Source of the DNA: a virus
Taxonomy: Duplodnaviria; Heunggongvirae; Uroviricota; Caudoviricetes
DNA length: 64,000 bases
Strand: one strand, 5' to 3'
Virus record (IMG/VR): IMGVR_UViG_3300012667_000768
Shown here: positions 70 through 55,958 of the stretch, one piece after another
How positions within the stretch are numbered: the first letter of the stretch is position 1
How the letters are laid out: every line of letters begins with the position of its first letter
Notes under the pieces: generated by a model
Seen by the model: only the letters and a program-made list of their open reading frames with translations
Told to the model about the DNA's origin: nothing
Database searches by the model: none
Position numbers and translations under genes: made by a program

Positions 70-3000
70 TTATTTAGCGTCCTTGACAGCTAGTGATACA
101 ACGTATGTGCTGCCTCCATCATATGTGAATAACGACCATACATCAACAGCATTAGCTGTTGTTGTCTGTGGCGGAGCGATACCCCCATTGAACTTAAATG
201 ATGCAGGCCATGTTACCGTACGAGTTCCAGAACCGTCTTGTTTTACTATTAAAGTTAAGGCAGCCGGGAGTTGAGTAGGATTACCACTTATTGCTAGTGT
301 TGTATTACCATTGATCATCATGTAGAGTGTGTCATAAGTAGACACGTCCCATGTCTGTGTTCCAGACACATTAACTAATGAATTTAGATTAGACTTATTA
401 GCTTTTGCATCCACTGTTGTTGTTAGTGAAGATAGTCCAGAAGCAGTTGCATAATAAGAGCCGTGCTGTCCATCAAGAAGATCGGCATCAAGTCCTGATG
501 AAGCTCCATCATTGCCTGCGTGCCATATGGTGTTACCACCGTAAGTAAGAGCTCCAGTACCTGTGCGACCTAGCTGAGTTTGGTCAGCAGTACCAAATAC
601 TATATAAGCAGCCTCTGTATTCTGAACGCCTTTAATGCATACTGTATTACTTACATTAGTATCGCCAATCCAGGCATCATCACCTATTTTAATATTTTCT
701 TGAAGACCATTATTAGTCGTAAAGATCTTAACAAATGTCGGAGAATCGCTAGTTGCTACTGCTTGTCCAATAGACACAGTAGGTGACGCGCCTTCGCTGC
801 CTGATCCCGATACTGTGACACCTGTGCCAGCAGTTATACCTTCAACATAGTTGCCTGTAGTATCTGTGCCAAGCGCTACTGAATTAGCAGCAATTGTAGC
901 TGTTAGAGTTACATCAGCCGATCCATTTAAAGATACAGAACCCGAAAGGTCGCCTCCTAGTGAGATTGTTCTGGCTGTCTGCCATGCAGAAGCTGTACTA
1001 GCATTACCTGTTAGGCTGCCCTCAATATTCGCTACAAGAGTATCTATGGCAAATGTTGCATCAGTAGTAGTAATAGTAGTACTTGGTTCAGTAGTCATAC
1101 CGCTGAATAAATACCATTTATCAGCTGACGCCTTTCTTACTATGCCGGAGTGTTGGTATAGCCCATCGTTAAAGTGTCCGACAATACCTAGATCTGCAGC
1201 ATTACCAGTATTTCCAGTACCAATATAAATTAGAGGATCGGTAATAGATAAATCAGTTGTACTTACTGTAGTAGTTGTACCACTAACAGTTAAGTTTCCG
1301 TTTACTGTGATACTATTGAAAGTAACATCATCTGTAGTACCCACAGGTTGTCCAATCGCTACAGTAGGAGACCAGCCCTCGCCAGCAGTGCCAGATACTG
1401 TAACTCCTGTTCCAGCAGTTAGACCGGCAACGTAGTTGCCTGTTGTGTCAGTACCTAAAGCTACTGAGTTAGCCGCAATAGTTGTTGTAATCGCTGCGTT
1501 TGCACTTCCATTAAAAGATACTGAGCCAGTAACATCTCCTGTTAGAGAAATAGTTCTAGCAGTCTGTAAAGTAGTTGCTGTAGTAGCATTACCACTTAAT
1601 GCAGCAGTGATAATTCCAGCACTAAAATCGCCATCGCCATCTCTAGCTACTACAGTATTACCTGTATTATTTTTGGTAGCATTGACACCAAGAGTTAGTG
1701 CCGCACCTTCTGATCCTACTCCTGATCCGCCAGTAATATAAGAGCCATTAGCAATAGTTGCTACATAGTTTCCAGTTGTATCTGTCCCAAGCGCTACTGA
1801 ATTAGCAGCTACAGTAGCCGTTAATGTAGCATTAGCTGAACCATCAATAGATACAGATCCAGTAAGATCTCCACCTAATGTGATTGTTCTAGGAGTGGTC
1901 CACTTAGCCGCTGATCCTGTTATGTTATCAGAAGCTATAATAAATCCAGCTCCATTAGCTAACTGAGAAGTATTGGTCGGTATAGTTATAGCACCGGTAG
2001 TGGAGTTATAATCGCCACTTCCAGCTGTAAAAGTTAAAGCCGATCTAGCACGAGCATCAGTGAAATAAAGATTTGTTGTACCTTCTGTAATCTCGTCGGT
2101 ATTATCTTTACCCGCTACAGCAGTGTCTACATAACTCTTAGTGGCTATTGTAGAAGTATCTACCGATACCTGTCCTGTTGCAATAGTAATACCGCTTCCT
2201 GCAGTAAAGTGTGCCCTAACTTCCGAAGCACTTGGACCTGTATATGAAAATACACCAGTTCCGCTATCATAAGCTAAGCTACCATCTCCGCCATTGTCAG
2301 TTACACTAACTGCGCCTCTTGCTCTAGTATTAGTATAGTAAAGATTAGTTGTACCTTCTGTAATTTCGTCAGTATTATCTTTCCCAGATACTGCTGTATC
2401 TACATAAGAACGTGTTGCCATTACAGCAGTATCAGCAGCTACTTGTCCATCCGTGATTGTAACGCCAGCTCCAGCAGTAAAGTGTGATCTAACTTCACTC
2501 GCACTAGGGCCTGTGTATACAAGAGCCCCTGTAAGTGTATTATAAGTTAGACTACCGTCACCACTAGCATCTGTTAGTGATATAGCATTTCTGGCTCTCG
2601 AATCTGTATAGTAAAGATTAGTTGAACCTTCTGTAATTTCATCGGTGTTATCTTTTGTAGCAAGAGCAGTAGCTATATTATCTGTTACATAAGTTTTTGT
2701 AGCTACGGTTGAATCTATACTAACAGCACCGTCTGTAATAGAAATACCAGTACTTGCTGTAAAGTGTGCTCTAACATCGGAAGCACTCGGACCTACATAA
2801 GTAATAACGCCATTTGAGTATGATAGAGATCCATCACCACCAGAGTCTGTGACGCTAATCGCATCTCTTGCTCTAGCTGTTGTAAAGTAAAGATTATTTA
2901 CACCTTCTGTGATTTCGTCAGTATTATCTTTTCCAGCAACTGCATTTGTCACAGTAGTAGTAACAAAGCTCTTTGTAGCTAGTACATCTGTATCTGCTCC

Positions 3001-3225
3001 AATCACTCCAGAGTTATAAGTAATACCTGTTGTTGCTGAAAGATCATCTAAGCTAATAAAGCTGGTGATATCAGAAGCTCTAGCTAATGGATATCCTCCA
3101 TTTAAAGATCCGTCGTGTACTACTAAAGTATCCTTTGTAGTATCTACTGTTACTTCGCCTACGGCTCCAGCAAAAGTAGTATGTTCCGCGGTTGTTCCGC
3201 GTCTAAGTTGAATTTGTTTTGACAT
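70..3225 (-). CDS. large tail fibre protein with internal tandem repeat domains
   Basis: 1051 aa; N-terminal QLRRGTTAEH...GEV motif shared with the next 3 genes; 4 copies of a ~95-aa repeat (KDNTDEITEG..NLY(F/Y)T..RAR) and 3 copies of TISLxGD..GTDTTGNYV; DNA-level repeats visible. Confidence 0.75.
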   Translation of the reverse strand: MSKQIQLRRGTTAEHTTFAGAVGEVTVDTTKDTLVVHDGSLNGGYPLARASDITSFISLDDLSATTGITYNSGVIGADTDVLATKSFVTTTVTNAVAGKDNTDEITEGVNNLYFTTARARDAISVTDSGGDGSLSYSNGVITYVGPSASDVRAHFTASTGISITDGAVSIDSTVATKTYVTDNIATALATKDNTDEITEGSTNLYYTDSRARNAISLTDASGDGSLTYNTLTGALVYTGPSASEVRSHFTAGAGVTITDGQVAADTAVMATRSYVDTAVSGKDNTDEITEGTTNLYYTNTRARGAVSVTDNGGDGSLAYDSGTGVFSYTGPSASEVRAHFTAGSGITIATGQVSVDTSTIATKSYVDTAVAGKDNTDEITEGTTNLYFTDARARSALTFTAGSGDYNSTTGAITIPTNTSQLANGAGFIIASDNITGSAAKWTTPRTITLGGDLTGSVSIDGSANATLTATVAANSVALGTDTTGNYVATIANGSYITGGSGVGSEGAALTLGVNATKNNTGNTVVARDGDGDFSAGIITAALSGNATTATTLQTARTISLTGDVTGSVSFNGSANAAITTTIAANSVALGTDTTGNYVAGLTAGTGVTVSGTAGEGWSPTVAIGQPVGTTDDVTFNSITVNGNLTVSGTTTTVSTTDLSITDPLIYIGTGNTGNAADLGIVGHFNDGLYQHSGIVRKASADKWYLFSGMTTEPSTTITTTDATFAIDTLVANIEGSLTGNASTASAWQTARTISLGGDLSGSVSLNGSADVTLTATIAANSVALGTDTTGNYVEGITAGTGVTVSGSGSEGASPTVSIGQAVATSDSPTFVKIFTTNNGLQENIKIGDDAWIGDTNVSNTVCIKGVQNTEAAYIVFGTADQTQLGRTGTGALTYGGNTIWHAGNDGASSGLDADLLDGQHGSYYATASGLSSLTTTVDAKANKSNLNSLVNVSGTQTWDVSTYDTLYMMINGNTTLAISGNPTQLPAALTLIVKQDGSGTRTVTWPASFKFNGGIAPPQTTTANAVDVWSLFTYDGGSTYVVSLAVKDAK

Positions 3226-3241: not shown

Positions 3242-4834
3242 TCAGGCGACGCTATCTGTAATCAGACCATAGTCCGCAGAAGAAGTAACTGGTCCAGTGA
3301 TAAATCCATAGTCCATAAGATCCATGATTCTTTGTTCGAATACTAACCAAGTTGTACCAGTGTAAATAAAGCTAGCATGTGTACGTATCTGGTCTAACAG
3401 AATATCATCTGCCTCATTAAGAATAGTACTACCATTTCTACCTACTGTTACGTGATTAGTATCGAAATAAGCATAAGCATCCATAATAACTACTTCATCA
3501 CCGACGCTAGGATTAGCAGGTAATGCTACAGATACAGGATTAGATCTAGTATCTACGAATACTCCTTCGTTATTACCAGTCGCGGTATAGTTAACACTAG
3601 TGCTCGTCCATACTTTTCCGCCTAGGCTAGTAGGTAAGTTATCTAAATCATTGTAGTCATTGGAAGTAGCTACTGCAGCGAGTCCTGTTACACCTATCTC
3701 TATAGAGGCATCGCCAAGAGTAATACCTATATTGTCTCCTGCGGTTATTTCAGCATTTTCGTATACGTTTAGAGTTTCGTTGCGAATAAGTATAGATCCA
3801 GCAGTATTTGTTCCACTAATCTTTACATCATGTAACTCATTAGTTTCATACCCATTCTGAATTTTTACGTAAATAACACCTACAGTAGCATGACTACGAA
3901 TACATACACCTACATACACAGCGTGATCAGGTGCCTGAGGTATAGTAGTAGTGTAGGCTCCAGGAGTAGTTGGAGATAGCCACAGCGCAGATCCTACTGG
4001 ATATGCTGATGTGTTCAACCCTGTTAAGTACCCAGTAGTGATACAGAATGAACTAGCACCACCAGTTACAGTCTTTGCTATCACACCGAAAGTTTTGGAG
4101 GACTTACTCTCTAAATTAGCTTGAGCAGGACGTACAGTTTGGTTGGCTCCTGTCGAGCCTACTGTGTATACTACTTCACCCTTAGTTAGTCCAGCATTAT
4201 CAGCGTCCCTAACTAGAATAGCGTTAGTCTGTCCTAGTTCAATAGCTAAACCACTATCATCTAATCCTAGGGATAATCCTTGTCGGTCTGCGTTCCAGTA
4301 TAACTTTCCAGTCTCAGGAACTTCAGCTGCTGTAGTATCGAATTGAATAAAGTCAAAGTGTTCGTCTTCAGTCTGATAGTAGCTTCTCCAAGTAGAGCCG
4401 GTGTATACGTATGTAACAGCTATGCCCTTTACATGGAGTACTTCATCTTCTGATACTCCTTCTACAGTTGAACTATTTCTGCTAACTGTTAGAGGATTGT
4501 CGCTAAAGTCATTGCCATCAATAATTACAACTTGAGTACCCTCAGTAGGAGTAGGTGGTAGCGTTATAGTAAAACTACCTCCAGAAGTATCTGCAATGAT
4601 TCCGTCTTTGTCAGAAGCAGTATAACTTCCCGTTTTTACAGTAAAGTCTATACCTCCTGGTTGTTGCATACCTATCTCAACAATACTTTCAGTACCGTCA
4701 TCTTTCTTAAGGTATAACTTGCCGTCATAAGTATTGATAGCAAGTTCGCCAAGTTCTAGTTGGCTAGTCTGCGGAACCTTTGTCGGTTCCGCAGATCTTC
4801 TTAATTTCAGTAAATTAGCCATATGGCTCCCCAT
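3242..4834 (-). CDS. tail fibre / receptor-binding protein
   Basis: 530 aa; N-terminal GELAINTYDGKLYLKKDDG motif typical of phage fibre proteins; position within the fibre cluster. Confidence 0.65.
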   Translation of the reverse strand: MGSHMANLLKLRRSAEPTKVPQTSQLELGELAINTYDGKLYLKKDDGTESIVEIGMQQPGGIDFTVKTGSYTASDKDGIIADTSGGSFTITLPPTPTEGTQVVIIDGNDFSDNPLTVSRNSSTVEGVSEDEVLHVKGIAVTYVYTGSTWRSYYQTEDEHFDFIQFDTTAAEVPETGKLYWNADRQGLSLGLDDSGLAIELGQTNAILVRDADNAGLTKGEVVYTVGSTGANQTVRPAQANLESKSSKTFGVIAKTVTGGASSFCITTGYLTGLNTSAYPVGSALWLSPTTPGAYTTTIPQAPDHAVYVGVCIRSHATVGVIYVKIQNGYETNELHDVKISGTNTAGSILIRNETLNVYENAEITAGDNIGITLGDASIEIGVTGLAAVATSNDYNDLDNLPTSLGGKVWTSTSVNYTATGNNEGVFVDTRSNPVSVALPANPSVGDEVVIMDAYAYFDTNHVTVGRNGSTILNEADDILLDQIRTHASFIYTGTTWLVFEQRIMDLMDYGFITGPVTSSADYGLITDSVA

Positions 4835-4863: not shown

Positions 4864-6156
4864 TTAAAATGTTCCGCCGTCAATATCACCCCATGCAGGC
4901 ACACCGCCTACTAGTTGGAGTATTTGACCCTCTGCTTGCACAGCTAAAGCAGCTAGTGTATTAGTACCTGAAGCATAGATAATGTCGCCGGCTACATAAG
5001 ATGTTAGACCTGTACCACCTTTAGTAGTAGCAATAGTTGTAGCATTCCATGTACCAGTAGCAACTGTACCTAAGGTAACAATACTAGTCTGACCTACATA
5101 GGCAGAGTCAATATCTACGCTGTCGCCATATACTACGATTCTATTTGTAGTACCTACTACATCTAGCTGATTACCAGACTTAGTAAGACCAGCGCCAGCA
5201 ATAACTTGACCAGCACCACTGAACTGAGATACAGTAACATCAGAAACACCTAGTGTTCCACCTACGTTAACTGTGATTAAATAACCATTATCTCCATTAA
5301 GAGTACCTTGCTCTACGAAGGCGAATGCACTGATAAGTTCATTCCAAGTATTAGCATCAGCGGCTCTATCCCAAGCACTAGCAGAAACTACATATATACC
5401 ATTCTGGTGAGCAGTATCTTGATTCTTTACTAGTACTCTATCTCCAGCGATAACAGCAATGCCGTCAATTGTCTGAGTGCCTGATAGTGTAATATTTGCA
5501 GTTGTAGCTACTCTTACGCTATCCTTAGGTGAGATACCTTGAACAGCGGAGTCTACATAATTCTTTGTTGCAGCATCCTGAGCATTTACAGGGTCGGCAA
5601 GACCTGTAATATTCTGTGAGTTAAAACTTACAGATGCGTTTGGCGCAGTCATCTGATCGAGGCGATTTGTACGTACCTGCGTATCGAAATCGCTGATCTT
5701 TGAAGCCGCTAAAGTAGGAATGTCACTAGCTGATAGTGTTGTTCCTGCGGTAGCACGACCCTTAGAGTCGATAGTTACTTTTGTATAAGTACCCGCAGTA
5801 ATACCAGTGTTTGCTAGTGTAATAGCAATTGAGGTCGCGCCAGTACCTGTCGCGTCACCTGTTAGAGTAATGGTTTCATTACCTGTTAGGTATGTATTAG
5901 TATCTAGTGTCCAGGTATCTGCGCCTGTTCTTTTTAGGAATCCAGTACCTGTAAGGCTAGAAATAGCGGTAAGATCAGCATCTAGTGCTTGTACTTCATC
6001 TAGTCTAGCCATTTTGACGAAGGTATTGTTGGATGTACCAATAGCAATACGACCTTCATCTGTGATTAAGTATGGCTCAGCTTGGTTTAAGGTCTGCGCT
6101 GTTATGGCAGATGCTAACTGGCTTGCAGTACCTCTTTTAATTTTTAAAAGTGTCAT
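4864..6156 (-). CDS. tail fibre protein
   Basis: 430 aa; N-terminal IKRGT...EPYLITDEGRIAIGTS motif (conserved fibre N-terminal box); Gly/Thr-rich. Confidence 0.65.
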   Translation of the reverse strand: MTLLKIKRGTASQLASAITAQTLNQAEPYLITDEGRIAIGTSNNTFVKMARLDEVQALDADLTAISSLTGTGFLKRTGADTWTLDTNTYLTGNETITLTGDATGTGATSIAITLANTGITAGTYTKVTIDSKGRATAGTTLSASDIPTLAASKISDFDTQVRTNRLDQMTAPNASVSFNSQNITGLADPVNAQDAATKNYVDSAVQGISPKDSVRVATTANITLSGTQTIDGIAVIAGDRVLVKNQDTAHQNGIYVVSASAWDRAADANTWNELISAFAFVEQGTLNGDNGYLITVNVGGTLGVSDVTVSQFSGAGQVIAGAGLTKSGNQLDVVGTTNRIVVYGDSVDIDSAYVGQTSIVTLGTVATGTWNATTIATTKGGTGLTSYVAGDIIYASGTNTLAALAVQAEGQILQLVGGVPAWGDIDGGTF

Positions 6157-6165
6157 GTATTATTC

Positions 6166-6501
6166 TCAGAATGTGCCGAAGTCAACATTCCCTACAGCTA
6201 GTTGGATGAAGCTGTTATTTATATCTTTTTGTATATTTAGGCTTTGATCGGTACGAATTATCCCGTCATTACCGCTTTCACCCCATATATATCCAGGAGT
6301 TCCATTAGGAGTAACGGCTACTTTTTCGTCCTCCAATTCTTCTAGTTTTGCAAACGACGAATAGGCGTTGGAACTGGTCCCAACGCCTAATCTATGTTCG
6401 TCAGTTATTAAGTAAGGTTCGCCGTCTCTTAGCTGATCGCTTGCAGCAGCCGCTTCAATCTGAGCTCGCGTACCTCGTTTTATCTGTATAGTATGAGTCA
6501 T
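6166..6501 (-). CDS. small tail-fibre-like protein (N-terminal box paralog)
   Basis: 111 aa; IKRGT..GEPYLITDEHRLGVGTS, the same N-terminal motif as the 4864-6156 product. Confidence 0.55.
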   Translation of the reverse strand: MTHTIQIKRGTRAQIEAAAASDQLRDGEPYLITDEHRLGVGTSSNAYSSFAKLEELEDEKVAVTPNGTPGYIWGESGNDGIIRTDQSLNIQKDINNSFIQLAVGNVDFGTF

Positions 6502-6553
6502 CTAGTATACTATAACGTACCGAAGAGTACGTGCTTGCTGCTAACCGCAGCGA

Positions 6554-6748
6554 TTAGCTACTGGATGTTGTACTAGCTACAACCATATGTAACCAGAGTA
6601 CTGCTAGCCAATTCCAAAACGTGAGTTGAATGGAAGTACCGAACAGTTGGTTTACAGCTAAAATACTTAGCCATGGTCCTAATACGAGGATTCCTACTAC
6701 AAAAAGTAGGACACCCCCTACACCAAGAGCTGGGAATATGTTTCTCAT
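6554..6748 (-). CDS. small membrane protein (2 TM)
   Basis: ATG start MRNIFPALG..; track ORF starts at an upstream TTG; two hydrophobic helices; -10 box 6 nt upstream of the ATG. Confidence 0.5.
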   Translation of the reverse strand: MRNIFPALGVGGVLLFVVGILVLGPWLSILAVNQLFGTSIQLTFWNWLAVLWLHMVVASTTSSS

Positions 6749-6754
6749 GTTTAT

Positions 6755-6783
6755 TTTATACTCCAAAACGGCATAAAAGTCAA
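6755..6783 (-). promoter_or_regulatory. host-type promoter TTGACT-N17-TATAAA
   Basis: minus strand reads cTTGACTtttatgccgttttggagTATAAAataaacATG; -10 is 6 nt before the ATG. Confidence 0.5.
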
Positions 6784-6792
6784 GTTATTTTT

Positions 6793-7158
6793 CTACGAGG
6801 CTAGGATAAAATCGCCTGTACGGTCTAGAAATTTGTAGTCTACTAGAGTAGGTTTAAACTCTTCGATAGCCGCTAAAATCGTATCAATATTGAACTCAGC
6901 ACACGAATATACATCGAGTCTCAATAGACCAGGCTCATCCTCGTCCCAAACGTGTAGAGCTATATGACTAGTCTCAATAATAGTTACGGCGGTGAGACCT
7001 CTATTACCAGGCATATCATGGTATCTAGCGTAAGGCCCATCGAGAATTTTCATCCCAATGTCTTCTACTAACTTCTTTTTCCATTGTACGATATACTCTG
7101 GATTCTTGGGTGGATCTTTTACTCTGGCATTAATAACCAGTAGGTGATGTACTAGCAT
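6793..7158 (-). CDS. speH: S-adenosylmethionine decarboxylase proenzyme (small SpeH type, pyruvoyl-dependent)
   Basis: 121 aa; IIETSHIALHVWDE matches the ESH autocleavage/pyruvoyl motif (cf. ISESHLTIHTWPE); DVYSCA resembles the DLFTCG block. Confidence 0.7.
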   Translation of the reverse strand: MLVHHLLVINARVKDPPKNPEYIVQWKKKLVEDIGMKILDGPYARYHDMPGNRGLTAVTIIETSHIALHVWDEDEPGLLRLDVYSCAEFNIDTILAAIEEFKPTLVDYKFLDRTGDFILAS

Positions 7159-7161
7159 TTC

Positions 7162-7872
7162 TTATTTTCCTTCGAGCCACTTTTTAAAGTGGGGCCGGTA
7201 TGGACGATATACGTCAACTCCATATTCTTTTAAATGATCCAGATTTCCTAGATCATACGCGTAAGCACCATCGTAATACCCGCCATATTCCTGAATATTT
7301 GGGAAATATGGTGAAGGCTCTTCGATTGGCTCAATAACATAAACCTGATAGTAGTTATACTCCTTATCAGTTACGTTACGTTTGTGTTCTAGCACGATGG
7401 CCATACAATGCCTACGAGCATGCCATACAATCTGGCCTGGCTCGAATTCTTCTCGCGCACAAGGTTCTGGAATAATTCCAGGATTGTGGTAGTCTGCTCC
7501 CACGACTTTTTGTGGAACGCCTACCCTCTCGATTACTTCTTTAACAAAAGAAGTAGAACGAAAGAGACGCTTTGAAATATCTATAATGGAATCTCCATCA
7601 AGATACCCTTCAATTACTGCTTGGATTTCAAAGGAGTTAGCTGGCTTACCCCGATTGGCAGCGCGACGACGCTGTAGCTCAGATACTTCTTCCTTATAGG
7701 TTTCAATGATCTTTGCTAGTCGCGTAGTATTATACGAAATATTAAGTATTTCGCACGCGTCCTTTTTAGAGATAGGCTTTTCAGCTTCAAGAAGCTCAAT
7801 AACCTTCTTGATATTAGCTTCGGTTAGATTCTCATGTTCCTTAGCTTTAACCTTGCCACGACCAGTAGCCAT
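7162..7872 (-). CDS. HTH DNA-binding protein, hypothetical
   Basis: 236 aa; N-terminal KKDACEILNISYNTTRLAKIIE helix-turn-helix-like segment; Shine-Dalgarno GGAGAG; own promoter. Confidence 0.5.
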   Translation of the reverse strand: MATGRGKVKAKEHENLTEANIKKVIELLEAEKPISKKDACEILNISYNTTRLAKIIETYKEEVSELQRRRAANRGKPANSFEIQAVIEGYLDGDSIIDISKRLFRSTSFVKEVIERVGVPQKVVGADYHNPGIIPEPCAREEFEPGQIVWHARRHCMAIVLEHKRNVTDKEYNYYQVYVIEPIEEPSPYFPNIQEYGGYYDGAYAYDLGNLDHLKEYGVDVYRPYRPHFKKWLEGK

Positions 7873-7898
7873 TGCTCTCTCCTTTGTAATAAAATCCG

Positions 7899-7927
7899 AT
7901 TATACTAGCCAAAGCTAGCAAAGTCAA
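7899..7927 (-). promoter_or_regulatory. promoter TTGACT-N17-TATAAT
   Basis: perfect -35 and -10 hexamers, 17-bp spacer, upstream of 7162-7872. Confidence 0.6.
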
Positions 7928-7928
7928 G

Positions 7929-8069
7929 TTAAATTTTGAAAATCCTTAGGATCTCATCGTCCAGATCGTAGTCTAGCATGTCTCCCTCTTCCCAATCAAG
8001 GTTACGAACCATGCTTTCGGGTATAATAATTCTGTATTCATCTAGATCTGAATCGTATTCAAGTTCCAT
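7929..8069 (-). CDS. small acidic hypothetical protein
   Basis: start re-assigned to MELEYDSD.. directly after the thyX stop; the track ORF 7929-8150 overlaps thyX. Confidence 0.4.
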   Translation of the reverse strand: MELEYDSDLDEYRIIIPESMVRNLDWEEGDMLDYDLDDEILRIFKI

Positions 8070-8070
8070 A

Positions 8071-8745
8071 TTATTCTCCAGGGCTTTGTGCAGCCTCTGC
8101 AACATTGGGAAAGTGTTGCTTAATGATTGTCCAACATTGTTCAGCAACAATGCGGTGTTCTTTTTGTGTTGCTTTATCCATACGTAGTTGACAGTAGTGA
8201 ATCCAACTACGTAGTGAGCCTGACATAATCATTACTGATTCTGTGCAGCCTTCAGGTAGAACTGCGCGAGCTTGTTCTTTGGCAATACCATTATCAATAG
8301 CCCACTTGTAGGCATACTCAACTTCGTTCAGTACTCGTGCTTGTCTAATATTCCAATTTTCTTCAAGTAGTTTATTATCGCCAACTTCGATTGAGTTCTG
8401 TCTGTTCTTGGCATCTTGAAGTCTGGCTTCTCGCTTAACAAATCCAAGATCTTTCGTTGGATCGGCGTAACGCTGAGAGTACTCTTGGAATGAGAAAGAA
8501 CGATGTCGCAAAATTTGGCGAGCGATATCTCGTGTGGTTTTGATTTCCATTGAGACATGGATCATCTCCAAAGGTGACCAGTGTTGATTACGAATAAGAT
8601 AACTAACTAACTTATTAGCTGTCGCTGTATTATTTTGATTTGAGGGATTAGAGACTCGTGCAGCCCATGCTACTAGTTCTTCAGCCGTAGTGCAATCAGT
8701 ATATGCGCTAGGCTTAGTAACACCAATTAGGTTTACTTCACTCAT
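8071..8745 (-). CDS. thyX: flavin-dependent thymidylate synthase ThyX
   Basis: 224 aa; ThyX signature RHRSFSFQEYSQRY (RHR-x7-S). Confidence 0.8.
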   Translation of the reverse strand: MSEVNLIGVTKPSAYTDCTTAEELVAWAARVSNPSNQNNTATANKLVSYLIRNQHWSPLEMIHVSMEIKTTRDIARQILRHRSFSFQEYSQRYADPTKDLGFVKREARLQDAKNRQNSIEVGDNKLLEENWNIRQARVLNEVEYAYKWAIDNGIAKEQARAVLPEGCTESVMIMSGSLRSWIHYCQLRMDKATQKEHRIVAEQCWTIIKQHFPNVAEAAQSPGE

Positions 8746-8939
8746 TATAGTGATTCCAATGCCTCTAGCTTGTCTTGATATTCTGCGATATGAGCAAGTT
8801 CTTCCTCAATAGCAGACATAAAGTCTGTATGGTCATGAATAGCCATAGGGTTATCTAGCATGATTTCTACGTTCATTTTGTGCTTGTTAATGTGCGCTAA
8901 GAAATGTTCACTTAGCGCGTTAATAATTTTACTTTGCAT
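8745..8939 (-). CDS. hypothetical protein
   Basis: 64-aa ORF, stop overlaps the thyX start. Confidence 0.45.
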   Translation of the reverse strand: MQSKIINALSEHFLAHINKHKMNVEIMLDNPMAIHDHTDFMSAIEEELAHIAEYQDKLEALESL

Positions 8940-9034
8940 ATTTAATTCCTAAAATTACTAGTACTACTAGCCATACTCCGAGCGGAACTTGTGCTAATAA
9001 AGCGACCAATAATATAAAATACATTATAGTAAGA

Positions 9035-11045: not shown

Positions 11046-11573
11046 CAGATACTTATCCTTATCTGGCGAAGTGAAGTAGGCTGTTTCTTCCTCACGAGTC
11101 AATTTTCTATGTTGGGGAATACTCTTTTTATCCTTCCAACATACATAAGTGGTCCCGTCGAAAGGTATAGTCCAGGGTTCGATACTCATCTTATCTCCTT
11201 ATTGAAATGGCCCGTTCTGTTTCTAGGTGGAACCATACCCAATGTCTTAGTGCTTACGCAGCAAGAGCAAATGCAACGTCGTTATCGTTTGCAGTTATGT
11301 TTTGTGGCACTTTGCCAGTCAATAGTCTCGGCGTTCCTATTACTCGAAAATCGATCCTAGTTCGCCCCCATCATAGATACACTGGTGTGCTACTACGCTA
11401 AAGGATTGACCGTTACCCGATGGGAACTCGAACATTGTCCAACGGCAGTAATCCACTCCTTAGACGATGGCTGCTTCTAGGCCCACGTCCCAATGTATCT
11501 ATGGTGGAGGCGGCGGGTGCTGCCCCCGCGTCTTTCCGCTTTTATTGTCGGCTGTCAGCGACTATAGTCATCA

Positions 11574-11602
11574 GATATAACAAAAGTTACTCTGAAAGTC
11601 AA
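11574..11602 (-). promoter_or_regulatory. promoter TTGACT-N17-TATATC
   Basis: fires into the 480-bp non-coding stretch 11100-11570. Confidence 0.4.
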
Positions 11603-11605
11603 GAA

Positions 11606-12280
11606 TTATTTCTTTATTGCTATGAAATTTGCTTGGTAGTGTCTAGGCGTCATAATATTTAGTCTATTTCTAGCTTCGATTAAGTTTTCACTGAGCAGTA
11701 GATCGTAGTCCTCTGCTAGTAGAAATGACGCGTTCTTGCCCATACTATACGCTTCTATAAGAAGTTTTATATAGCTATACTTTATTCCCTTATGTAAAAG
11801 AGCTATTATTGATATTAATAACCACCCAGGAGCTTTTGTCTGAGTATAAGAGAACATGGCTAAGCACATTTCGCCAATATAAGAGGTATCGTATCCAGTA
11901 AGAGTATGCCATACGTCATGAACATCAGAATATCTTCTAGCAAGCCAGCTATAAGGATGCCTGGCTTCTATCCATTCTTTTTTGCCTTTGCGATTTAATA
12001 CTGGTAAGTAATCTTCTATATTTGGATACTGAAGGTAAGTTTCCTTTCCTACAGAACCCTCTGGCCTAGAAGATAGGTTTCTGAAATAGGTAGATACTTC
12101 TTCCGAATTGTATACTACCTCTCCGCCCTTTTTACTAGATATTAGCTTATTAAGCATACTCTTCAAAGAGTAACGATTAGTGACATATATAAGATATACA
12201 CTAAACTTAGGGTTCTCTGGATTTTTATAAAGCTTTTTACTTATTTTATACGCCGATTTAAGATCTAGTTTTGGCAGCAT
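11606..12280 (-). CDS. hypothetical protein with COQ4-like HDxxH-x11-E metal-binding motif
   Basis: 224 aa; VHDVWHTLTGYDTSYIGE matches the HDxxH-(x)11-E pattern of the COQ4 family. Confidence 0.45.
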   Translation of the reverse strand: MLPKLDLKSAYKISKKLYKNPENPKFSVYLIYVTNRYSLKSMLNKLISSKKGGEVVYNSEEVSTYFRNLSSRPEGSVGKETYLQYPNIEDYLPVLNRKGKKEWIEARHPYSWLARRYSDVHDVWHTLTGYDTSYIGEMCLAMFSYTQTKAPGWLLISIIALLHKGIKYSYIKLLIEAYSMGKNASFLLAEDYDLLLSENLIEARNRLNIMTPRHYQANFIAIKK

Positions 12281-15901: not shown

Positions 15902-16699
15902 TTACTTGACGTTTACGATACCCTTAAAGTCGTAAGGGATAACAATGGTATTTACCTTGCCATCACGAACGGCTTCTGCAATGGTAACGATCGCGGTAGC
16001 TTCCATATAACGGGTAGCTCCAGCATTAGCGTTAAGAGCAGCAATACGCTGAGCTTCTAGCTTAGCAGTACCAACTTCTACTTCCTTACGCTTGTTCTCG
16101 TTCTGTGCCTGAACTAGCAGGTTGGCTGACTGAACGATATTAGCAGCAGGCTTTACCTGACGTACTAAAACCTGCGAAACGTCGATCTGCCCGTCTAGCT
16201 TTTCAGCAACTAGGCTTGCAACGATTTCCTGACGGATAAGCTGTTCCATTTCAGCACGATTATCTGCCATCTTTAGTGACTCGTAACGACGAGCAACCTT
16301 GTAAGCAGCATTGCGACCTAGCTGACGAATGTAGTTATACATAAGTAGAGTATCGCCTTCTTCGGTATCCGCATGGAAACCACGGTTCTTCTCAATATAG
16401 AGTTCTGCAACAGAACCTGGATTAATTGAGTAGATTACTGCCATATCAAAATCAGCTACTGTTGAGTTATCAGAAGCTAGAGGAGTCATGTCAGCAATAT
16501 CGACCTGAACGTCCTTAGTAGGGAAAGTTAGAACATCACCAAAGATAGTCTGATTAACAGTACCTGGAAGAAGTTCACTAGTTTCAATGGTCTTGTCGAA
16601 TGAACGACGAACACCTACTTCACCTGTTTCGATACGAGTACAAGCTGATGCAGTAGCCATAAGAGCAACGAGTACACCAACCTTAGCAATACGATTCAT
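15902..16699 (-). CDS. SPFH/band-7 (prohibitin-like) lipoprotein
   Basis: 265 aa; lipobox LMATASAC; SPFH-like core with a long coiled-coil, Ala-rich C-terminus. Confidence 0.6.
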   Translation of the reverse strand: MNRIAKVGVLVALMATASACTRIETGEVGVRRSFDKTIETSELLPGTVNQTIFGDVLTFPTKDVQVDIADMTPLASDNSTVADFDMAVIYSINPGSVAELYIEKNRGFHADTEEGDTLLMYNYIRQLGRNAAYKVARRYESLKMADNRAEMEQLIRQEIVASLVAEKLDGQIDVSQVLVRQVKPAANIVQSANLLVQAQNENKRKEVEVGTAKLEAQRIAALNANAGATRYMEATAIVTIAEAVRDGKVNTIVIPYDFKGIVNVK

Positions 16700-20629: not shown

Positions 20630-20703
20630 TGGAGCGGAATGCGGGAATCGAACCCGCCTCGTCAGCTTGGAAGGCTGTCATAATACCACTATACCAATCC
20701 CGC
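20630..20703 (-). tRNA. tRNA (anticodon probably UCC, Gly), CCA encoded
   Basis: reverse complement GCGGGATTGGTATAGTGGTATTATGACAGCCTTCCAAGCTGACGAGGCGGGTTCGATTCCCGCATTCCGCTCCA; 7-bp acceptor stem (one GU); T-arm GGTTCGATTCC. Confidence 0.65.
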
Positions 20704-20704
20704 G

Positions 20705-20776
20705 TACCAATGGCTAGACTCGAACTAGCGACATAAGGAATATGAGTCCTCTGTTCTACCACTGAACTACACTGGT
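20705..20776 (-). tRNA. tRNA-Met (CAU)
   Basis: reverse complement ACCAGTGTAGTTCAGTGGTAGAACAGAGGACTCATATTCCTTATGTCGCTAGTTCGAGTCTAGCCATTGGTA; anticodon loop CTCATAT; 72 nt. Confidence 0.7.
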
Positions 20777-20855
20777 GTATAAAAAGGGCCGTCCACAGGA
20801 GGTTGCAAGACACCTGCCAAACCTGTGCGTTACTGTGTTTCCAACGGAAGTTAAT

Positions 20856-20932
20856 TGGTTGCGGGGATCGGATTCGAACCGATGACCTTTAGGTTATGAG
20901 CCTAACGAGCTACCTGACTGCTCCACTCCGCG
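20856..20932 (-). tRNA. initiator-like tRNA-fMet (CAU)
   Basis: reverse complement CGCGGAGTGGAGCAGTCAGGTAGCTCGTTAGGCTCATAACCTAAAGGTCATCGGTTCGAATCCGATCCCCGCAACCA; close to E. coli tRNA-fMet, including the C1-A72 mismatch and the three G-C pairs in the anticodon stem. Confidence 0.75.
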
Positions 20933-21399
20933 TCAAATGCTATTAAAAGACACTAGTAAAGTGATAAAGGTCCAAAAAACCACGATCGCTTCTATAAATT
21001 CGGCCTTGAATGTATACTAATGTCATTTAATAGCACTCCTAAGAATGCTACGAGAAGGATGAGATTACTCCTTCTATCGGAAGTCTTTGGTCATTACCCA
21101 ATCCCTTGCGAGGATGGTTCTACCTTTATCCACCAGAACGTCTCACGACTGTTCTAGTAACTTCCAGTGCTGCTTTATTATAGTGATAGCTTTTTCACTG
21201 TCATACCATGCTACTCACTCATTATTAACCCGTCTACCTTGCGAGCAGTTCAGTTCCGCTAAGAACTTACGTTTTCACTTCGAGCGAACAAATCCAGCTT
21301 GCGACCTTCATTGCACCATCTTCTATTACTAGGATGGTATTAAGCACCTTTCACATGGCACCGAAGCGGACTTTGCGTTTTCTATATATCGTTCCATGA

Positions 21400-21472
21400 T
21401 ATACGTTATAGGATTTGAACCTATGACTCTCTAATTAATGGTTAGATGCTCTACCAACTGAGCTAAACGTAA
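21400..21472 (-). tRNA. tRNA-like gene with non-canonical anticodon loop (CCAUUAA)
   Basis: reverse complement TTACGTTTAGCTCAGTTGGTAGAGCATCTAACCATTAATTAGAGAGTCATAGGTTCAAATCCTATAACGTATA; good D- and T-arms; 1-72 mismatch; position 33 is C. Confidence 0.5.
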
Positions 21473-21933
21473 AGTTGCTAACCTACCTCGAAGTGCCACT
21501 TCCGCTGCTTCATATCCTTTTGAGATACAAAATACAACACTCCGACTGTCTTTCTCCTTGCGAGATACTAAACCATGCTTCTGGACTTTCACCCATTGCA
21601 TTGCCACTTAGCCCTTCCACGCGAATGGTCGAACACAGTGACTACCAGTTAATTGTACGCACCTCATGTTTTGGCTTGTTATGGAACAGGACGCCAATCC
21701 CTTTATCCCTCACCGACCGGCTCTGGGCATATATCCTTTCGGACCATAACAACAATCCATGCGATGATTGCCTAGCTAAATAGACAATGACACGCTTTCG
21801 GCTATAAACCGAGTCGTATCCAACGCTGGCTTGCATAGTAGGACTCTTGCGAGCGGAGGTATGTAGGAATTCCTCCGTTGGCCACATTGCTGTGGTTATC
21901 CTTTATAGAGCGCTATGCCGCTCTTGAATATCT

Positions 21934-26511: not shown

Positions 26512-26770
26512 CTAATTTAGTCCACATATGAGAGTTGCGAGGAATGTTAGGAATAATAGTATAGTTATCCCCATCTTTAAATACTAGCCTATCATGTACG
26601 CCAGGCTTGAATGCACTAGCTGGAGCCTGCTCGCCATAATACCTAAAGATAAGATCTGATGGCTGTGGAGAGTTAGCCAGTAGAGTTTCTACTAGTTCTG
26701 CGTTGAAAGAGCGACGAGGCTTATGCTCTCCGCTCTTATTTGTCCACTCAGGAATAGTGATTCTGTACAC
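26504..26770 (-). CDS. hypothetical protein
   Basis: 88-aa ORF. Confidence 0.5.
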   Translation of the reverse strand: MYRITIPEWTNKSGEHKPRRSFNAELVETLLANSPQPSDLIFRYYGEQAPASAFKPGVHDRLVFKDGDNYTIIPNIPRNSHMWTKLDA

Positions 26771-27215
26771 GTTCTTTAATCTCCAAATAAAACTGATGAT
26801 ACTTGGCGATACGCTGAATATCCTTATCAGTTACGCCCTTTAGACGACGAATATCAGAGTTGTGACGAAGATCACACAGCTTGACTCGCATTGCATCTTC
26901 ATTCGCAAACACTTGACGCTTATATTCGTCATAGGTCTGACCACGCTGCTTCGTAAGCGAGTATATACCTGTAATTACTCTTTCACTAAAGCCAAGTTCT
27001 TTTAGCTGGTGATAAGTTACGTCTGTGTCTTCTACTAGGTCGTGACCTAGCGCAATGCACATCAGTTCTTCGTCGTCGCTTTTTAGATAGTGCATGACTT
27101 TAAGGCAGTGCATGATATAAGGCTTTCCAGCCTTATCCGTCTGCCCATCATGAGCATTGGTTGCTAGATGCAACATTTTGCTTAACATCATCAATTTCCT
27201 TTCTAATAGCTTCAT
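26748..27215 (-). CDS. HD-domain (p)ppGpp hydrolase-like protein (small alarmone hydrolase)
   Basis: AHDGQTDKAGKPYIMHCLKV...GHDLVEDT matches the RelA/SpoT-type HD hydrolase motifs; true start may be an internal Met. Confidence 0.6.
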   Translation of the reverse strand: MKLLERKLMMLSKMLHLATNAHDGQTDKAGKPYIMHCLKVMHYLKSDDEELMCIALGHDLVEDTDVTYHQLKELGFSERVITGIYSLTKQRGQTYDEYKRQVFANEDAMRVKLCDLRHNSDIRRLKGVTDKDIQRIAKYHQFYLEIKERVQNHYS

Positions 27216-28942: not shown

Positions 28943-29497
28943 TTAAACTGACTTTAAGAATGGTACTAGCCAATGCTTGTGTTTACCCCAAAAGCGTCTA
29001 GCCTTCAAGCCCTCTAGCTGAGCCATGTCTCTGCCTTCTGCTGATAGAAACCACTCTTTAGTATTGTAGGAACATCCAAACTGAACGTGACCATCATCAT
29101 AGACGGTGATTGGGTAATCTAGACCATCTAGTTGCACTGGTGGACGATTTATAATTCCTTTAGCCCACTCTACTTGCTGAATGTTTGCATCTTTAAGGTC
29201 AACATTAGAAAGCATACTGTCCTTAAAAGATGTGTGAATAAGCTGCGACTTAGCAAAGCTAGAGCAGAATACATATGCGTTTCTAATAGACGTTTGAATG
29301 AACGAACACTCAATAAACTGAGCACCACATAGGTAGCCCTGATCCATTAAAGCAGCATCAAAGTTGCATCTAGTAAAGATTGCACCTAGATACTCGGCTT
29401 TCTCTAGTGATGCCGACGTGAAGTCACAATCTGTGTACTCTGCGTGAGTGAAGTCAAAGCGATGAAGATCGCGACCATAGAATGATTCATTTTTCAT
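28943..29497 (-). CDS. pentapeptide-repeat protein
   Basis: tandem A(D/N)LxX-type pentapeptide repeats; start MKNESFYG lies 6 nt after a TATAAT box. Confidence 0.6.
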   Translation of the reverse strand: MKNESFYGRDLHRFDFTHAEYTDCDFTSASLEKAEYLGAIFTRCNFDAALMDQGYLCGAQFIECSFIQTSIRNAYVFCSSFAKSQLIHTSFKDSMLSNVDLKDANIQQVEWAKGIINRPPVQLDGLDYPITVYDDGHVQFGCSYNTKEWFLSAEGRDMAQLEGLKARRFWGKHKHWLVPFLKSV

Positions 29498-45641: not shown

Positions 45642-46928
45642 ATGTTAGTAAGTAGAGCAGATATTCCCACAGACGTAATCGTCCAGTACCCTCAGGCATT
45701 TATGAAGGTACCTATCGGTAATTATCTAAAAGAATTAGACGTAGACCCATTGCCATCACAGATAGCACTAGTAAATGGTATAAATAATCCAAAGTACCGC
45801 TTTGGATGTGCTGCTCTATCTCGACGTCAAGGTAAAACTTATATAGCAAATATTGTGGGCCAGGTAGTAGCTTTAGTACCTGGCTCACATGTGCTTATCA
45901 TGGCTCCAAACTATTCTCTATCTCAGATTTCTTTTGATCTACAAAGAAACCTAATAAAGAAGTTCGGACTAGAGGTAACTAAAGATAATGCTAAAGACAA
46001 AGTTATTGAGCTATCTAACGGCTCCACTGTCAGAATCGGTTCAGTCAATCAAGTTGACAGTTGCGTTGGTCGTTCATACGATCTTATCATTTTTGACGAA
46101 GCCGCGCTAACAGATGGGATGGAAGCTTTCAATGTAGCACTTCGTCCTACACTTGATAAGCCTAATTCAAAGGCGCTATTTATTTCGACTCCTCGTGGTA
46201 AAAACAATTGGTTCTCAACTCTCTTCGATAGAGGATTTAGAGACGATTTCCCCGAGTGGTTCTCTGTAAAAGCGACTTGGAAAGATAATCCAAGAATGAC
46301 AGAGAGCGACGTTGCCGAAGCTCGTCGCTCCATGAGCGAAGCTGAATTCCGTCAGGAATATGAAGCCGACTTCTCAATCTTCGAAGGTAAGATTTGGCAA
46401 GTACAATCAGAGTGTATACGTCCATTTGAACTTAATTTTAAGAAATGCGATGTGTTCGCAGGGCTCGACCTTGGATTTAGAGATCCTACTGCGATGTGTG
46501 TAGTAGCCTTCTCATGGGAAGATGAAAACTTCTACCTATTAGATGAGTATCTAAATAATGAAGAAGTTACTTCCGGACATGCGCGAGAGATAAAGAAGCT
46601 AATAGATAAGTGGAACATCGACTATATCTATATCGACTCTGCCAACCAGCAGCAGAGATATGACTTCGCACAAGAATACGATATACCTACTACTAATGCT
46701 AAGAAATCAGTATTAGACGGAATAGGCTATATTGCCTCATTGGCAGATAATAACAAAATTATTATCGACCCAGAATTACATCACGTGCTTCACGCATTCG
46801 ACCAATATCAGTGGGATCCGAATGGAGCACTACAAAGGGAAAAGCCCTTACATAATGATGCCTCGCACATGGCCGACGCTCTTAGGTACGCGCTTTATAG
46901 TTATAAAACTAACGTAGGAGGTTTTTAA
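45642..46928 (+). CDS. terL: terminase large subunit
   Basis: Walker A SRRQGKTY, Walker B YDLIIFDEA; C-terminal nuclease-like acidic residues. Confidence 0.75.
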   Translation: MLVSRADIPTDVIVQYPQAFMKVPIGNYLKELDVDPLPSQIALVNGINNPKYRFGCAALSRRQGKTYIANIVGQVVALVPGSHVLIMAPNYSLSQISFDLQRNLIKKFGLEVTKDNAKDKVIELSNGSTVRIGSVNQVDSCVGRSYDLIIFDEAALTDGMEAFNVALRPTLDKPNSKALFISTPRGKNNWFSTLFDRGFRDDFPEWFSVKATWKDNPRMTESDVAEARRSMSEAEFRQEYEADFSIFEGKIWQVQSECIRPFELNFKKCDVFAGLDLGFRDPTAMCVVAFSWEDENFYLLDEYLNNEEVTSGHAREIKKLIDKWNIDYIYIDSANQQQRYDFAQEYDIPTTNAKKSVLDGIGYIASLADNNKIIIDPELHHVLHAFDQYQWDPNGALQREKPLHNDASHMADALRYALYSYKTNVGGF

Positions 46929-47245
46929 TGATCGTTTTGATGCAAGGAGAGAGTCTTCTCCTACCTGCTACTGTTACTGGATCTAAATCGCAAATAGAAA
47001 ATCTAACAGTAGAACTAAAGAGATCTACACGTGGAGAAGTTCCACCAGAATCAGCGGCTACAGTAGCTACACTAGCTATCCAAAATTATACCGCCGATGA
47101 AATAACAAATGGCTACTTATTCAGCCTAGATAACACTACTACTCTAGCATTAGGGATCTACTATGTTAACTATTCATATGAAGTAGGTAATAGGATTTAT
47201 AAAGGTACGCCATTAAGAGTAGTAGTTAAAGAGAGCGTTATATGA
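46928..47245 (+). CDS. hypothetical protein
   Basis: 105-aa ORF. Confidence 0.5.
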   Translation: MIVLMQGESLLLPATVTGSKSQIENLTVELKRSTRGEVPPESAATVATLAIQNYTADEITNGYLFSLDNTTTLALGIYYVNYSYEVGNRIYKGTPLRVVVKESVI

Positions 47246-47401
47246 TTGTACTACAGCCTCAGATAGACGCTAGAGCAGTAAAAGTAGATTGGTACTTTGC
47301 TGACGAGAGACCTAAGGTGGATGACGGATCCCCTAGAGAAGTTCATCCAAGCTTTATTTTAAACGAGAGATACGAAGTTTGGTCTTCTACGGAGTGGTAA
47401 T

Positions 47402-47593
47402 ATGGCATATGTAAGATTTTTTAAAGTAACTAGTTTGCCCGTTACTCCAGAGCCAGATGCATTTTATTATGTGGAAAACGATGAGTACGCAGAAGCTTAT
47501 CTCACCGATACTTCAGGTGTAGCAAAAAAGATTGGTAATACAGATATGATTGAAGAATTAACGCAAGACATTAATGCGGGATTCTTCAGTTAA
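47402..47593 (+). CDS. hypothetical protein
   Basis: 63-aa ORF. Confidence 0.45.
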   Translation: MAYVRFFKVTSLPVTPEPDAFYYVENDEYAEAYLTDTSGVAKKIGNTDMIEELTQDINAGFFS

Positions 47594-47626
47594 CAAAATA
47601 TTACCGTACCATCGGCAATTTGCACC

Positions 47627-47655
47627 TTGACTTTCGATCCTCAAACTAATATAAT
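47627..47655 (+). promoter_or_regulatory. promoter TTGACT-N17-TATAAT upstream of the HNH gene
   Basis: perfect hexamers. Confidence 0.55.
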
Positions 47656-47678
47656 TGCAAATAACAAAAGGAGAAAAA

Positions 47679-48071
47679 ATGTCTGGAACAGCATTATTGC
47701 GCGACCCTATCAAATATGTTAGGGACCGAGCAAAGGCCAGATACAAAAAAGGATCTCATTGTGAAATTTGTGAGACCACAGATAACCTTGACTTTCACCA
47801 CTATTATACGATGACTCCATTGTTTAATAAGTGGTGCAAGATTAAGGGATATACAGTAAAAATTGTTGACGATATCTTAAACATTAGAGATGAATTTATC
47901 AAAGAAGAAGAGGATAAAGTCTACAACAAAACAGTAACTCTGTGCCACGAACATCATATGAAGCTCCACAGTGTATATGGAAAAGACCCAGCTCTGACTA
48001 CCGCTGAAAAGCAGATGAATTGGGTACGGATTCAAAGGGAGAAGTATGAAGCTAGGAAGTTGGCTAGTTGA
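47679..48071 (+). CDS. HNH endonuclease
   Basis: CEICETTDNLDFHHYY...TLCHEHHMKLH; Shine-Dalgarno AAAGGAGAAAAA; own promoter; between the terminase and portal genes. Confidence 0.7.
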   Translation: MSGTALLRDPIKYVRDRAKARYKKGSHCEICETTDNLDFHHYYTMTPLFNKWCKIKGYTVKIVDDILNIRDEFIKEEEDKVYNKTVTLCHEHHMKLHSVYGKDPALTTAEKQMNWVRIQREKYEARKLAS

Positions 48072-52280: not shown

Positions 52281-52295
52281 TTGAAATAGCTGGGA

Positions 52296-52330
52296 AGGGG
52301 GTTGCTGCTACCAGCAGCCCCCTTTCTTAT
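52296..52330 (+). terminator. intrinsic terminator after the capsid gene
   Basis: GC-rich hairpin GGGGGTTGCTGC..GCAGCCCCC followed by TTTCTTATT. Confidence 0.6.
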
Positions 52331-52343
52331 TGGAGTAAAATAA

Positions 52344-54743: not shown

Positions 54744-54767
54744 AAGTAGTACTTAGGAGAAATAAAA

Positions 54768-55895: not shown

Positions 55896-55918
55896 TAAAG
55901 GTCATAGAAAAATAGTTC

Positions 55919-55947: not shown

Positions 55948-55958
55948 TGGATAAATTC

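Follow-up and report, generated by a model that had tools for sequence, protein, structure and literature searches.

The 64,000-nucleotide stretch of viral DNA analyzed here (IMG/VR record IMGVR_UViG_3300012667_000768, Caudoviricetes; hereafter the window) encodes on its minus strand, at positions 6793 to 7158, a 121-amino-acid protein that, by analogy with a characterized pelagiphage enzyme, is best read as a self-processing, pyruvoyl-dependent L-arginine decarboxylase of the SpeDA-like kind. We put the probability of this reading at about 0.55. The initial annotation had presented the gene as an S-adenosylmethionine (SAM) decarboxylase (AdoMetDC) carried by the phage. Family and fold were borne out by our analysis, but AdoMet-decarboxylating activity, and with it the label "S-adenosylmethionine decarboxylase" as a statement of the reaction, is probably wrong.

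The 6793-7158 open reading frame is a genuine gene under strong purifying selection, since the identical 121-amino-acid protein was present on 17 metagenomic contigs with conserved neighbors and comparison with homologous genes (70 to 81% nucleotide identity) gave dN/dS ratios of 0.06 to 0.18. In total, 1,347 homologs of the protein were recovered at E ≤ 1e-3. Only 3 nt separate the end of the upstream gene (7162-7872, PHROG "helicase" family) from the ATG, which makes the pair translationally close-packed. A search for near-identical DNA with positions 5000 to 9000 of the window found no match among the phage records, and the phage is thus without a close sequenced relative. The reading frame was located exactly where the initial annotation had placed it, and it contains the quoted peptide IIETSHIALHVWDE.

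Assignment of the protein to the class 1b AdoMetDC fold of pyruvoyl enzymes is well supported. The Pfam profile AdoMet_dc (PF02675), which had been proposed as a check, with the lack of any class 1 match named as grounds for dropping the claim, matched clearly above threshold (47.4 bits versus a gathering score of 25; E = 2.8e-12; profile positions 15 to 106 of 107). PHROG 3125, "S-adenosylmethionine decarboxylase," also matched (E = 1.9e-12). An AlphaFold2 model computed from a 77-sequence alignment reached a pLDDT of 97 and a pTM of 0.89, and its top five PDB matches were the class 1b AdoMetDCs of Thermotoga maritima and Aquifex aeolicus (template modeling [TM] scores of 0.61 to 0.75; 19 to 22% identity), the T. 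maritima structures 1TLU and 1VR7 scoring 0.73 to 0.75; plant, human, and trypanosome AdoMetDCs followed next. Ser64, His69, and Cys86 aligned with T. maritima Ser63, His68, and Cys83 and were invariant in the family alignments, including those of 78 and 77 sequences. In T. maritima, these three residues are essential for self-processing and catalysis (PMC10407285). By this correspondence, the proenzyme is predicted to cleave itself between Thr63 and Ser64.

Two features of bona fide AdoMetDCs were missing around this site. Alignment with T. maritima SpeD (viSESHltiHtWPE) paired Thr63 with the Glu that precedes the processing Ser and placed Asp72 where the HTWPE segment has Pro; in place of the Glu-Ser site and the HxWPE Pro, the protein thus has Thr63-Ser64 and H69-V-W-D72-E. 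The ESH motif that had been described as intact actually reads E62-T63-S64-H65, with Thr directly before the pyruvoyl-forming Ser, while the Ser/His/Cys set itself is present. Glu73, four residues past His69, and the aromatic Tyr46 are retained at positions which we take to be those of ribose binding and adenine stacking in AdoMetDC. Together with the fold and the catalytic residues, these two positions favor an alternative reading as a bona fide AdoMetDC of a divergent subfamily, which would provide decarboxylated SAM to a host aminopropyltransferase or act as a SAM drain. We consider this unlikely on the evidence of scores, tested relatives, and gene neighborhoods given below.

Scored against TIGR03330, the AdoMetDC equivalog model of NCBIfam (cutoff, 75.65 bits), the protein reached 39.3 bits, one third of the score of canonical SpeDs (129 to 144 bits; S-PM2, 133.1; the SpeD of a bacterial operon described below, 133.8; a viral SpeD, 128.7; speH_2 of Microcystis phage MaAM05, 143.9). 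Similar scores were obtained for the pelagiphage protein HTVC201P, a proven arginine decarboxylase (38.4 bits), for HTVC115P (40.5 bits), and for the cellular proteins sharing the WDE segment (36 to 52 bits), while one SpeDC, the ornithine decarboxylase type, scored 23.2 bits. Compared with canonical class 1b SpeD (S-PM2; T. maritima 1TLU), the protein shares the fold, the Ser/His/Cys set, and the character of a small proenzyme carried singly by marine phages, self-processing being predicted for the window protein; it differs by an identity of only 18 to 25%, by Thr-Ser and HVWDE instead of Glu-Ser and HxWPE, by its low equivalog score, and by extra residues. The Pro is reported to be fully conserved in bona fide AdoMetDCs and not conserved in arginine decarboxylases of the same origin (PMC10407285). 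Loss of the Pro with retention of Ser/His/Cys, the pattern of SpeDA, is what the window protein has (Asp72 with Ser64, His69, and Cys86).

The arginine decarboxylase reading draws most on published work with phage relatives. Li et al. (2023) expressed phage speD homologs in an Escherichia coli BL21 speD deletion strain (PMC9992855): spermidine was restored by the homologs of S-PM2 (a canonical SpeD), phiYS40, phiN3, and P2559S, but not by that of HTVC201P (AXH71538). The purified HTVC201P enzyme was active on L-arginine only (Km, 0.87 mM; kcat/Km, 290 M-1 s-1), and neither ornithine nor lysine was a substrate. BAR31446, a marine relative close to HTVC201P, likewise failed to complement and raised agmatine (PMC9992855). 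The failure of both proteins to replace speD argues against AdoMetDC activity in this group. The window protein resembles HTVC201P SpeDA in length (121 versus 122 amino acids), sequence (41 to 44% identity), and near-equal TIGR03330 score. Both have the core IETSHIAxHxWDEDEP...LDVYxC, with Thr before Ser, Asp for Pro, and two shared insertions that canonical SpeD lacks, and both genes are solitary within a replication/nucleotide-metabolism module, marked by ribonucleotide reductase in the pelagiphages and by ThyX and dUTPase in the window. The closest annotated proteins were those of HTVC115P and HTVC103P (QGZ18262 and QGZ17908; 50 to 54% identity), whose core (GNRGLTAVTIIETSHIAMHVWDEDNP) is nearly that of the window protein and whose name, S-adenosylmethionine decarboxylase, is a database annotation only; HTVC103P is among the proteins placed in the tree of PMC9992855.

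Subfamily membership was assessed with a family sample made up of the best 150 of 759 representatives of 50%-identity clusters (E ≤ 1e-3) and the best 120 close homologs. The residue before the processing Ser was Thr in 255 of 260 members, and eight residues after it Asp was found in 232 of 260, where canonical enzymes have Pro; compared with canonical SpeD, this TSH/WDE family contains additional residues ahead of GNRG and behind WDE. When the window protein was searched with tblastn against 50,697 phage records, 14 records matched, namely 11 pelagiphages and one uncultured Pelagivirus phage (44 to 54% identity) and two weak cyanophage matches. In contrast, a canonical AdoMetDC domain used as the query found 150 other phage records (cyanophages, Thermus and Croceibacter phages, and others) and no pelagiphage. 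Contrary to the suggestion that such genes are seldom seen outside some marine phages, relatives of the subfamily were widespread, occurring on more than 525 IMG/VR contigs in addition to the 150 records with canonical speD. Identity of the window protein was 41 to 53% to pelagiphage proteins and 18 to 25% to proven AdoMetDCs and SpeDC domains. A neighbor-joining tree split the core AdoMetDCs from all other sequences in 79% of bootstraps and recovered the TSH/WDE family in 73%. The phage ornithine decarboxylases ATV46410, QMP83838, CAB5221556, CAB4131572, and CAB4162964, the arginine decarboxylase BAR31446, and the SpeE-linked SpeD CAB4129969 stood outside these comparisons.

A different amino acid substrate has to be weighed as well. 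The protein could be a pyruvoyl-dependent L-ornithine decarboxylase of the SpeDC kind, with putrescine as its immediate product, or it could accept both arginine and ornithine, as UCP01 does; we regard this as quite unlikely. In its favor, five freshwater phage homologs described as HTVC201P-like are ornithine decarboxylases, one of them (UCP01) with dual activity (PMC9992855), and a published tree groups HTVC201P itself with the SpeDC clade. SpeDC (PMC10407285) also shares with the window protein the Thr before the processing Ser and the origin of the fold. Four residues, Gln, Thr, Phe, and Tyr, are reported to be diagnostic of SpeDC ornithine decarboxylases (PMC10407285); from Fig. S5 of that study and viral SpeDC sequences, we inferred their placement at Ser-5, Ser-1, Ser+6, and Cys-6, counted from the processing Ser and the catalytic Cys. 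At these positions, the window protein has Thr59, Thr63, Val70, and Arg80, so that only the Thr matches (one of four), whereas HTVC201P has Gln, Thr, Ser, and Gln. Among 260 relatives, Gln at Ser-5 was restricted to HTVC201P, and Phe at Ser+6 occurred in 11. SpeDC further differs by Ser-Leu instead of Ser-His and by loss of the WxE segment (QLIETSLVSGHFAN), and identity of the window protein to SpeDC domains was only 20 to 22%. Lysine is not a known alternative in this group, as all characterized neofunctionalized SpeD homologs act on arginine or ornithine.

No SpeE (spermidine synthase) gene within 10 kb and no second SpeD homolog were found in the best 80 viral loci with a WDE-type gene (916 kb in total). 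The recurrent neighbors in these loci were ribonucleotide reductase, ThyX, an RNase H-like nuclease, glutaredoxin, and homing endonucleases, and those of the window gene were ThyX, dUTPase, and a deaminase. tblastn and Pfam scans likewise detected no SpeE in the 64-kb window, which is part of a phage genome. When the search started from SpeE, 26 of the 48 viral loci recovered had a SpeD homolog within 6 kb; all of these keep the Pro, and none of the 48 loci had a WDE-type gene within that distance. Both directions of this comparison speak against an AdoMetDC. On giant-virus contigs, Thr-Ser does occur beside SpeE with the Pro retained, a point in favor of an AdoMetDC. Nine viral contigs (L179, L181 to L186, L189, and L218; for example, L181 at 5217-6729) carried a module of canonical SpeD, a SpeDC-type ornithine decarboxylase (MTQLIETSLVSGHFAN), and SpeE, and phage MaAM05 has a comparable speH_2, speH_1, speE arrangement.

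Homing endonucleases were also found in direct association with the WDE-type genes. A GIY-YIG-like domain (YVVYKTTNLINGKxYIGVH) was fused C-terminally to seven family members (P0130, P0138, P0165, P0194, P0213, P0234, and P0258), and a separate GIY-YIG-like open reading frame lay directly upstream of the WDE-type gene in 24 of the 80 viral loci; because of these fusions and upstream genes, the locus resembles a homing-endonuclease hot spot.

A scan of GTDB species genomes returned 128 relatives, of which 80 loci were kept; five of these (L019, L041, L051, L061, and L075) were phage contigs binned into metagenome-assembled genomes (MAGs) and were not counted as cellular. The remaining loci were chromosomal and belonged to Thioglobus/Pseudothioglobus, Pelagibacteraceae, and other marine lineages. 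WDE-type genes also occur in complete genomes, such as that of Pseudothioglobus sp. nBUS_23 (NZ_CP179200). In five loci (L039, L042, L043, L046, and L048), from "Deltaproteobacteria" and unclassified marine MAGs, a WDE-type gene, a canonical SpeD (133.8 bits), and SpeE (394.6 bits) followed one another with tight spacing; coordinates for L046 are given in the table. Had SpeE directly followed the WDE-type gene in these five loci, an AdoMetDC would be favored, but tblastn and listing of the open reading frames placed the canonical SpeD between the two. A second AdoMetDC would therefore be redundant there. In arrangements of two SpeD paralogs with one SpeE, the divergent copy has been demonstrated to decarboxylate arginine or ornithine. 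Linkage of an arginine decarboxylase to SpeE also makes biochemical sense, because agmatine is aminopropylated by 17 of the 18 bacterial spermidine synthases tested (PMC11107197) and the two enzymes would catalyze consecutive steps of the N1-aminopropylagmatine route. The same order of divergent paralog, SpeD, and SpeE is also that of SpeDC in Anaerolinea, in Atribacteria, and on the nine viral contigs described above, and to this extent the operon also speaks for an ornithine decarboxylase. We have not seen the WDE-type/SpeD/SpeE operon described for this subfamily in the literature examined.

Taken with the equivalog score, the pelagiphage-type kinship, the arginine decarboxylase activity of tested relatives, and the loss of the Pro, the canonical SpeD of this operon makes it probable that the proposed raising of decarboxylated SAM, or depletion of SAM, is wrong. 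SAR11 bacteria can be cited on either side. SAR11-type hosts possess an aminopropyltransferase, and they are already equipped with a functional canonical AdoMetDC, fused to that aminopropyltransferase (PMC11107197).

Several observations weigh against the arginine decarboxylase reading, and some of them lend weight to an AdoMetDC instead. First, TIGR03330 is an imperfect discriminator: three proven phage AdoMetDCs also fall below its cutoff (phiYS40, 70.3 bits; P2559S, 63.3 bits; phiN3, 28.9 bits), so that the low score of the window protein argues against an AdoMetDC without proving the point. Two of the three, phiN3 and phiYS40, likewise lack the HxWPE Pro, and phiN3 is without the Glu-Ser site as well. 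Second, a neighbor-joining tree, in which internal branches were weakly supported, joined the window protein first to its metagenomic relatives and then to cellular homologs, leaving the HTVC201P clade outside. At all eight columns that separate the HTVC201P clade from the SpeE-linked cellular homologs, the window protein has the cellular state, and HTVC201P thus appears, from sequence, to be a derived outlier whose activity would be transferable at subfamily level only. The HTVC201P clade departs from the window protein and the rest of the subfamily by DT in place of GP, Gln at Ser-5, Ser at Ser+6, and NYLTLDR in place of YKFLDR; the phages differ too: HTVC201P is a 41-kb podovirus, and the window comes from a genome of T5-like, siphovirus type that exceeds 64 kb and has 41% G+C. 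Third, no agmatinase or other polyamine gene was found in the window or near relatives, and a motif scan of the window and of 160 related loci detected no arginase/agmatinase-family open reading frame. The missing agmatinase counts in favor of an ornithine decarboxylase.

The main observation not fitting an arginine decarboxylase came from 23 loci of a marine gammaproteobacterial group (L054 to L097; for example, L063 at 7218-8375, with the WDE-type gene at 7995-8375), in which the WDE-type gene is paired divergently with a SpeE-like gene and no canonical SpeD was found within 16 kb. The WDE-type gene could be the AdoMetDC of these bacteria. The SpeE-like partner is a short and divergent protein of 240 amino acids, which matched Pfam Spermine_synth at 128 bits and the NCBIfam model at 200 bits, below its cutoff of 260. 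Gene order was conserved at these loci and ran porin-like gene, PII, AmtB, SpeE-like gene divergent to the WDE-type gene, HAD hydrolase, ArgS, and PriA.

The mainstream TSH/WDE clade is large. Besides the window protein, its members come from hundreds of viral contigs and from the chromosomes of SUP05/Thioglobus-type, Pelagibacteraceae-type, and other marine bacteria. It is conceivable, if improbable, that this clade differs in function from the HTVC201P clade, either as a true AdoMetDC without the Pro, with which phages consume SAM or supply host aminopropyltransferases, or as an enzyme for a new substrate. In HTVC109P and a related podophage contig, the gene lies in the genomic slot that it has in HTVC201P and yet is mainstream-like in sequence; the mainstream type may thus be able to carry the function of the HTVC201P enzyme. 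Some other substrate, or a noncatalytic or regulatory remnant, appears very unlikely for the window protein. Assays cover the atypical podophage branch of the TSH/WDE subfamily only, and bacterial neighbors of WDE-type genes are often unrelated to polyamines (a nitrilase-like CN hydrolase, a glutamine-synthetase-like protein, and an ectoine-hydrolase-like M24 protein). Against a remnant stand the invariant Ser/His/Cys set and the strong purifying selection; against another substrate stands the restriction of characterized neofunctionalized members to arginine or ornithine. In Thioglobus-like loci, the CN hydrolase encoded downstream of the WDE-type gene was considered as an N-carbamoylputrescine amidase and rejected, since it is nitrilase-like (TIGR04048, 221 bits, versus aguB, 57 bits); it therefore gives no support for an agmatine pathway.

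Self-processing, substrate, and physiological role of the arginine decarboxylase favored here would be as follows, in analogy to characterized members of the fold. The proenzyme would cut itself at Thr63/Ser64 and convert Ser64 into a covalent pyruvoyl group at the N terminus of the alpha chain (∼6.6 kDa), which would remain bound to the beta chain (∼7.2 kDa). The alpha-amino group of the substrate would be bound by the pyruvoyl group as a Schiff base. In the decarboxylation that follows, the pyruvoyl group would act as electron sink, and His69 and Cys86 would be the acid/base residues. The beta chain presumably holds the determinants of substrate specificity, by analogy with the crenarchaeal AdoMetDC/arginine decarboxylase pair. 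During infection, L-arginine would be converted to agmatine, as by the HTVC201P enzyme, and agmatine could then enter putrescine and (homo)spermidine via host enzymes or be aminopropylated directly by spermidine synthase. The outcome may be a larger polyamine supply for translation and genome packaging.

If so, the gene would likely act at the entry step of polyamine synthesis (arginine to agmatine) and not at the aminopropyl-donor step, and its predicted effect on the host would shift accordingly: the supply of diamine or agmatine would rise, and SAM would not be consumed. Phage genes of this kind and the neofunctionalization of SpeD were already described in 2023, and the window gene is a further case of a known auxiliary metabolic gene. 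As the subfamily is very common on viral contigs and in many abundant marine bacterial lineages, establishing the activity of one mainstream member would reannotate thousands of sequences.

Table. Positions of the decarboxylase gene and its predicted parts, of the L046 operon, and of other features of the window
Feature	Sequence	Positions	Strand	Basis or remarks
Decarboxylase-fold CDS, TSH/WDE subfamily proenzyme	Window	6793..7158	minus	ATG start; 121 aa plus stop; complete
Predicted beta chain, residues 1-63	Window	6970..7158	minus	C-terminal Thr63; alignment to T. maritima SpeD and family alignments
Predicted alpha chain, residues 64-121	Window	6796..6969	minus	N-terminal Ser64, predicted pyruvoyl; Ser64 = T. 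maritima Ser63
Core motif IIETSHIALHVWDE, residues 60-73	Window	6940..6981	minus	Predicted Thr63-Ser64 cleavage site, His69, Asp72 replacing Pro, Glu73
Cys86 codon	Window	6901..6903	minus	Counterpart of catalytic Cys83 in T. maritima AdoMetDC; invariant column
RBS-like GAAGGA	Window	7168..7173	minus	9 nt upstream of ATG; read from sequence
WDE-type paralog	L046	7998-8420
Canonical SpeD	L046	8449-8904
SpeE	L046	8891-9748
Mtd_N open reading frame	Window	73-3225	minus	56.8 bits, above threshold
530-aa open reading frame	Window	3245-4834
Mtd_N open reading frame	Window	4867-6156	minus	20.3 bits, below threshold
Mtd_N open reading frame	Window	6169-6501	minus	23.3 bits, below threshold
Two-piece (permuted) tmRNA, alphaproteobacterial	Window	11206-11606	minus	RF01849, 108 bits vs gathering 50 (full model); RF04321, 93 bits
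Coq4-like open reading frame, 224 aa	Window	11609-12280	minus	Pfam, E = 4.8e-17; 62.4 vs 22.9 bits
SPFH/Band 7 protein	Window	15905-16699	minus	49.5 bits
tRNA cluster, Gly-tcc and two Met-cat	Window	20633-20932
GOLLD RNA, full length	Window	21056-21545	minus	Rfam RF02032, 201.7 bits vs gathering 150; model 1-416
tRNA within GOLLD RNA	Window	21400-21472		ARAGORN call, Asn-att
HD-domain protein	Window	26751-27215	minus	27.9 bits, barely above threshold
Pentapeptide-repeat protein	Window	28946-29497	minus	52 bits
T5-like structural module	Window	45642-63876	plus	Large terminase, portal, major tail protein, 2076-aa open reading frame

Beyond the decarboxylase gene, the window carries a T5-like structural module that includes a fused prohead protease-major capsid protein of 928 amino acids, with 33 to 40% identity to Demerecviridae-type phages. 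Downstream of the decarboxylase gene, three open reading frames begin with an Mtd_N domain and probably form a set of tail-fibre or receptor-binding paralogs, the first two being separated by the 530-amino-acid frame. The tmRNA, for which ARAGORN predicted the tag peptide ANDNDVAFALAA, hints at an alphaproteobacterial host. Adjoining it is the Coq4-like gene of ubiquinone biosynthesis, which is unusual in a phage and was also found on the related contig L003. Further genes of auxiliary appearance encode SPFH/Band 7, HD-domain, and pentapeptide-repeat proteins, and a full-length GOLLD RNA with a tRNA nested inside it adjoins the tRNA cluster.

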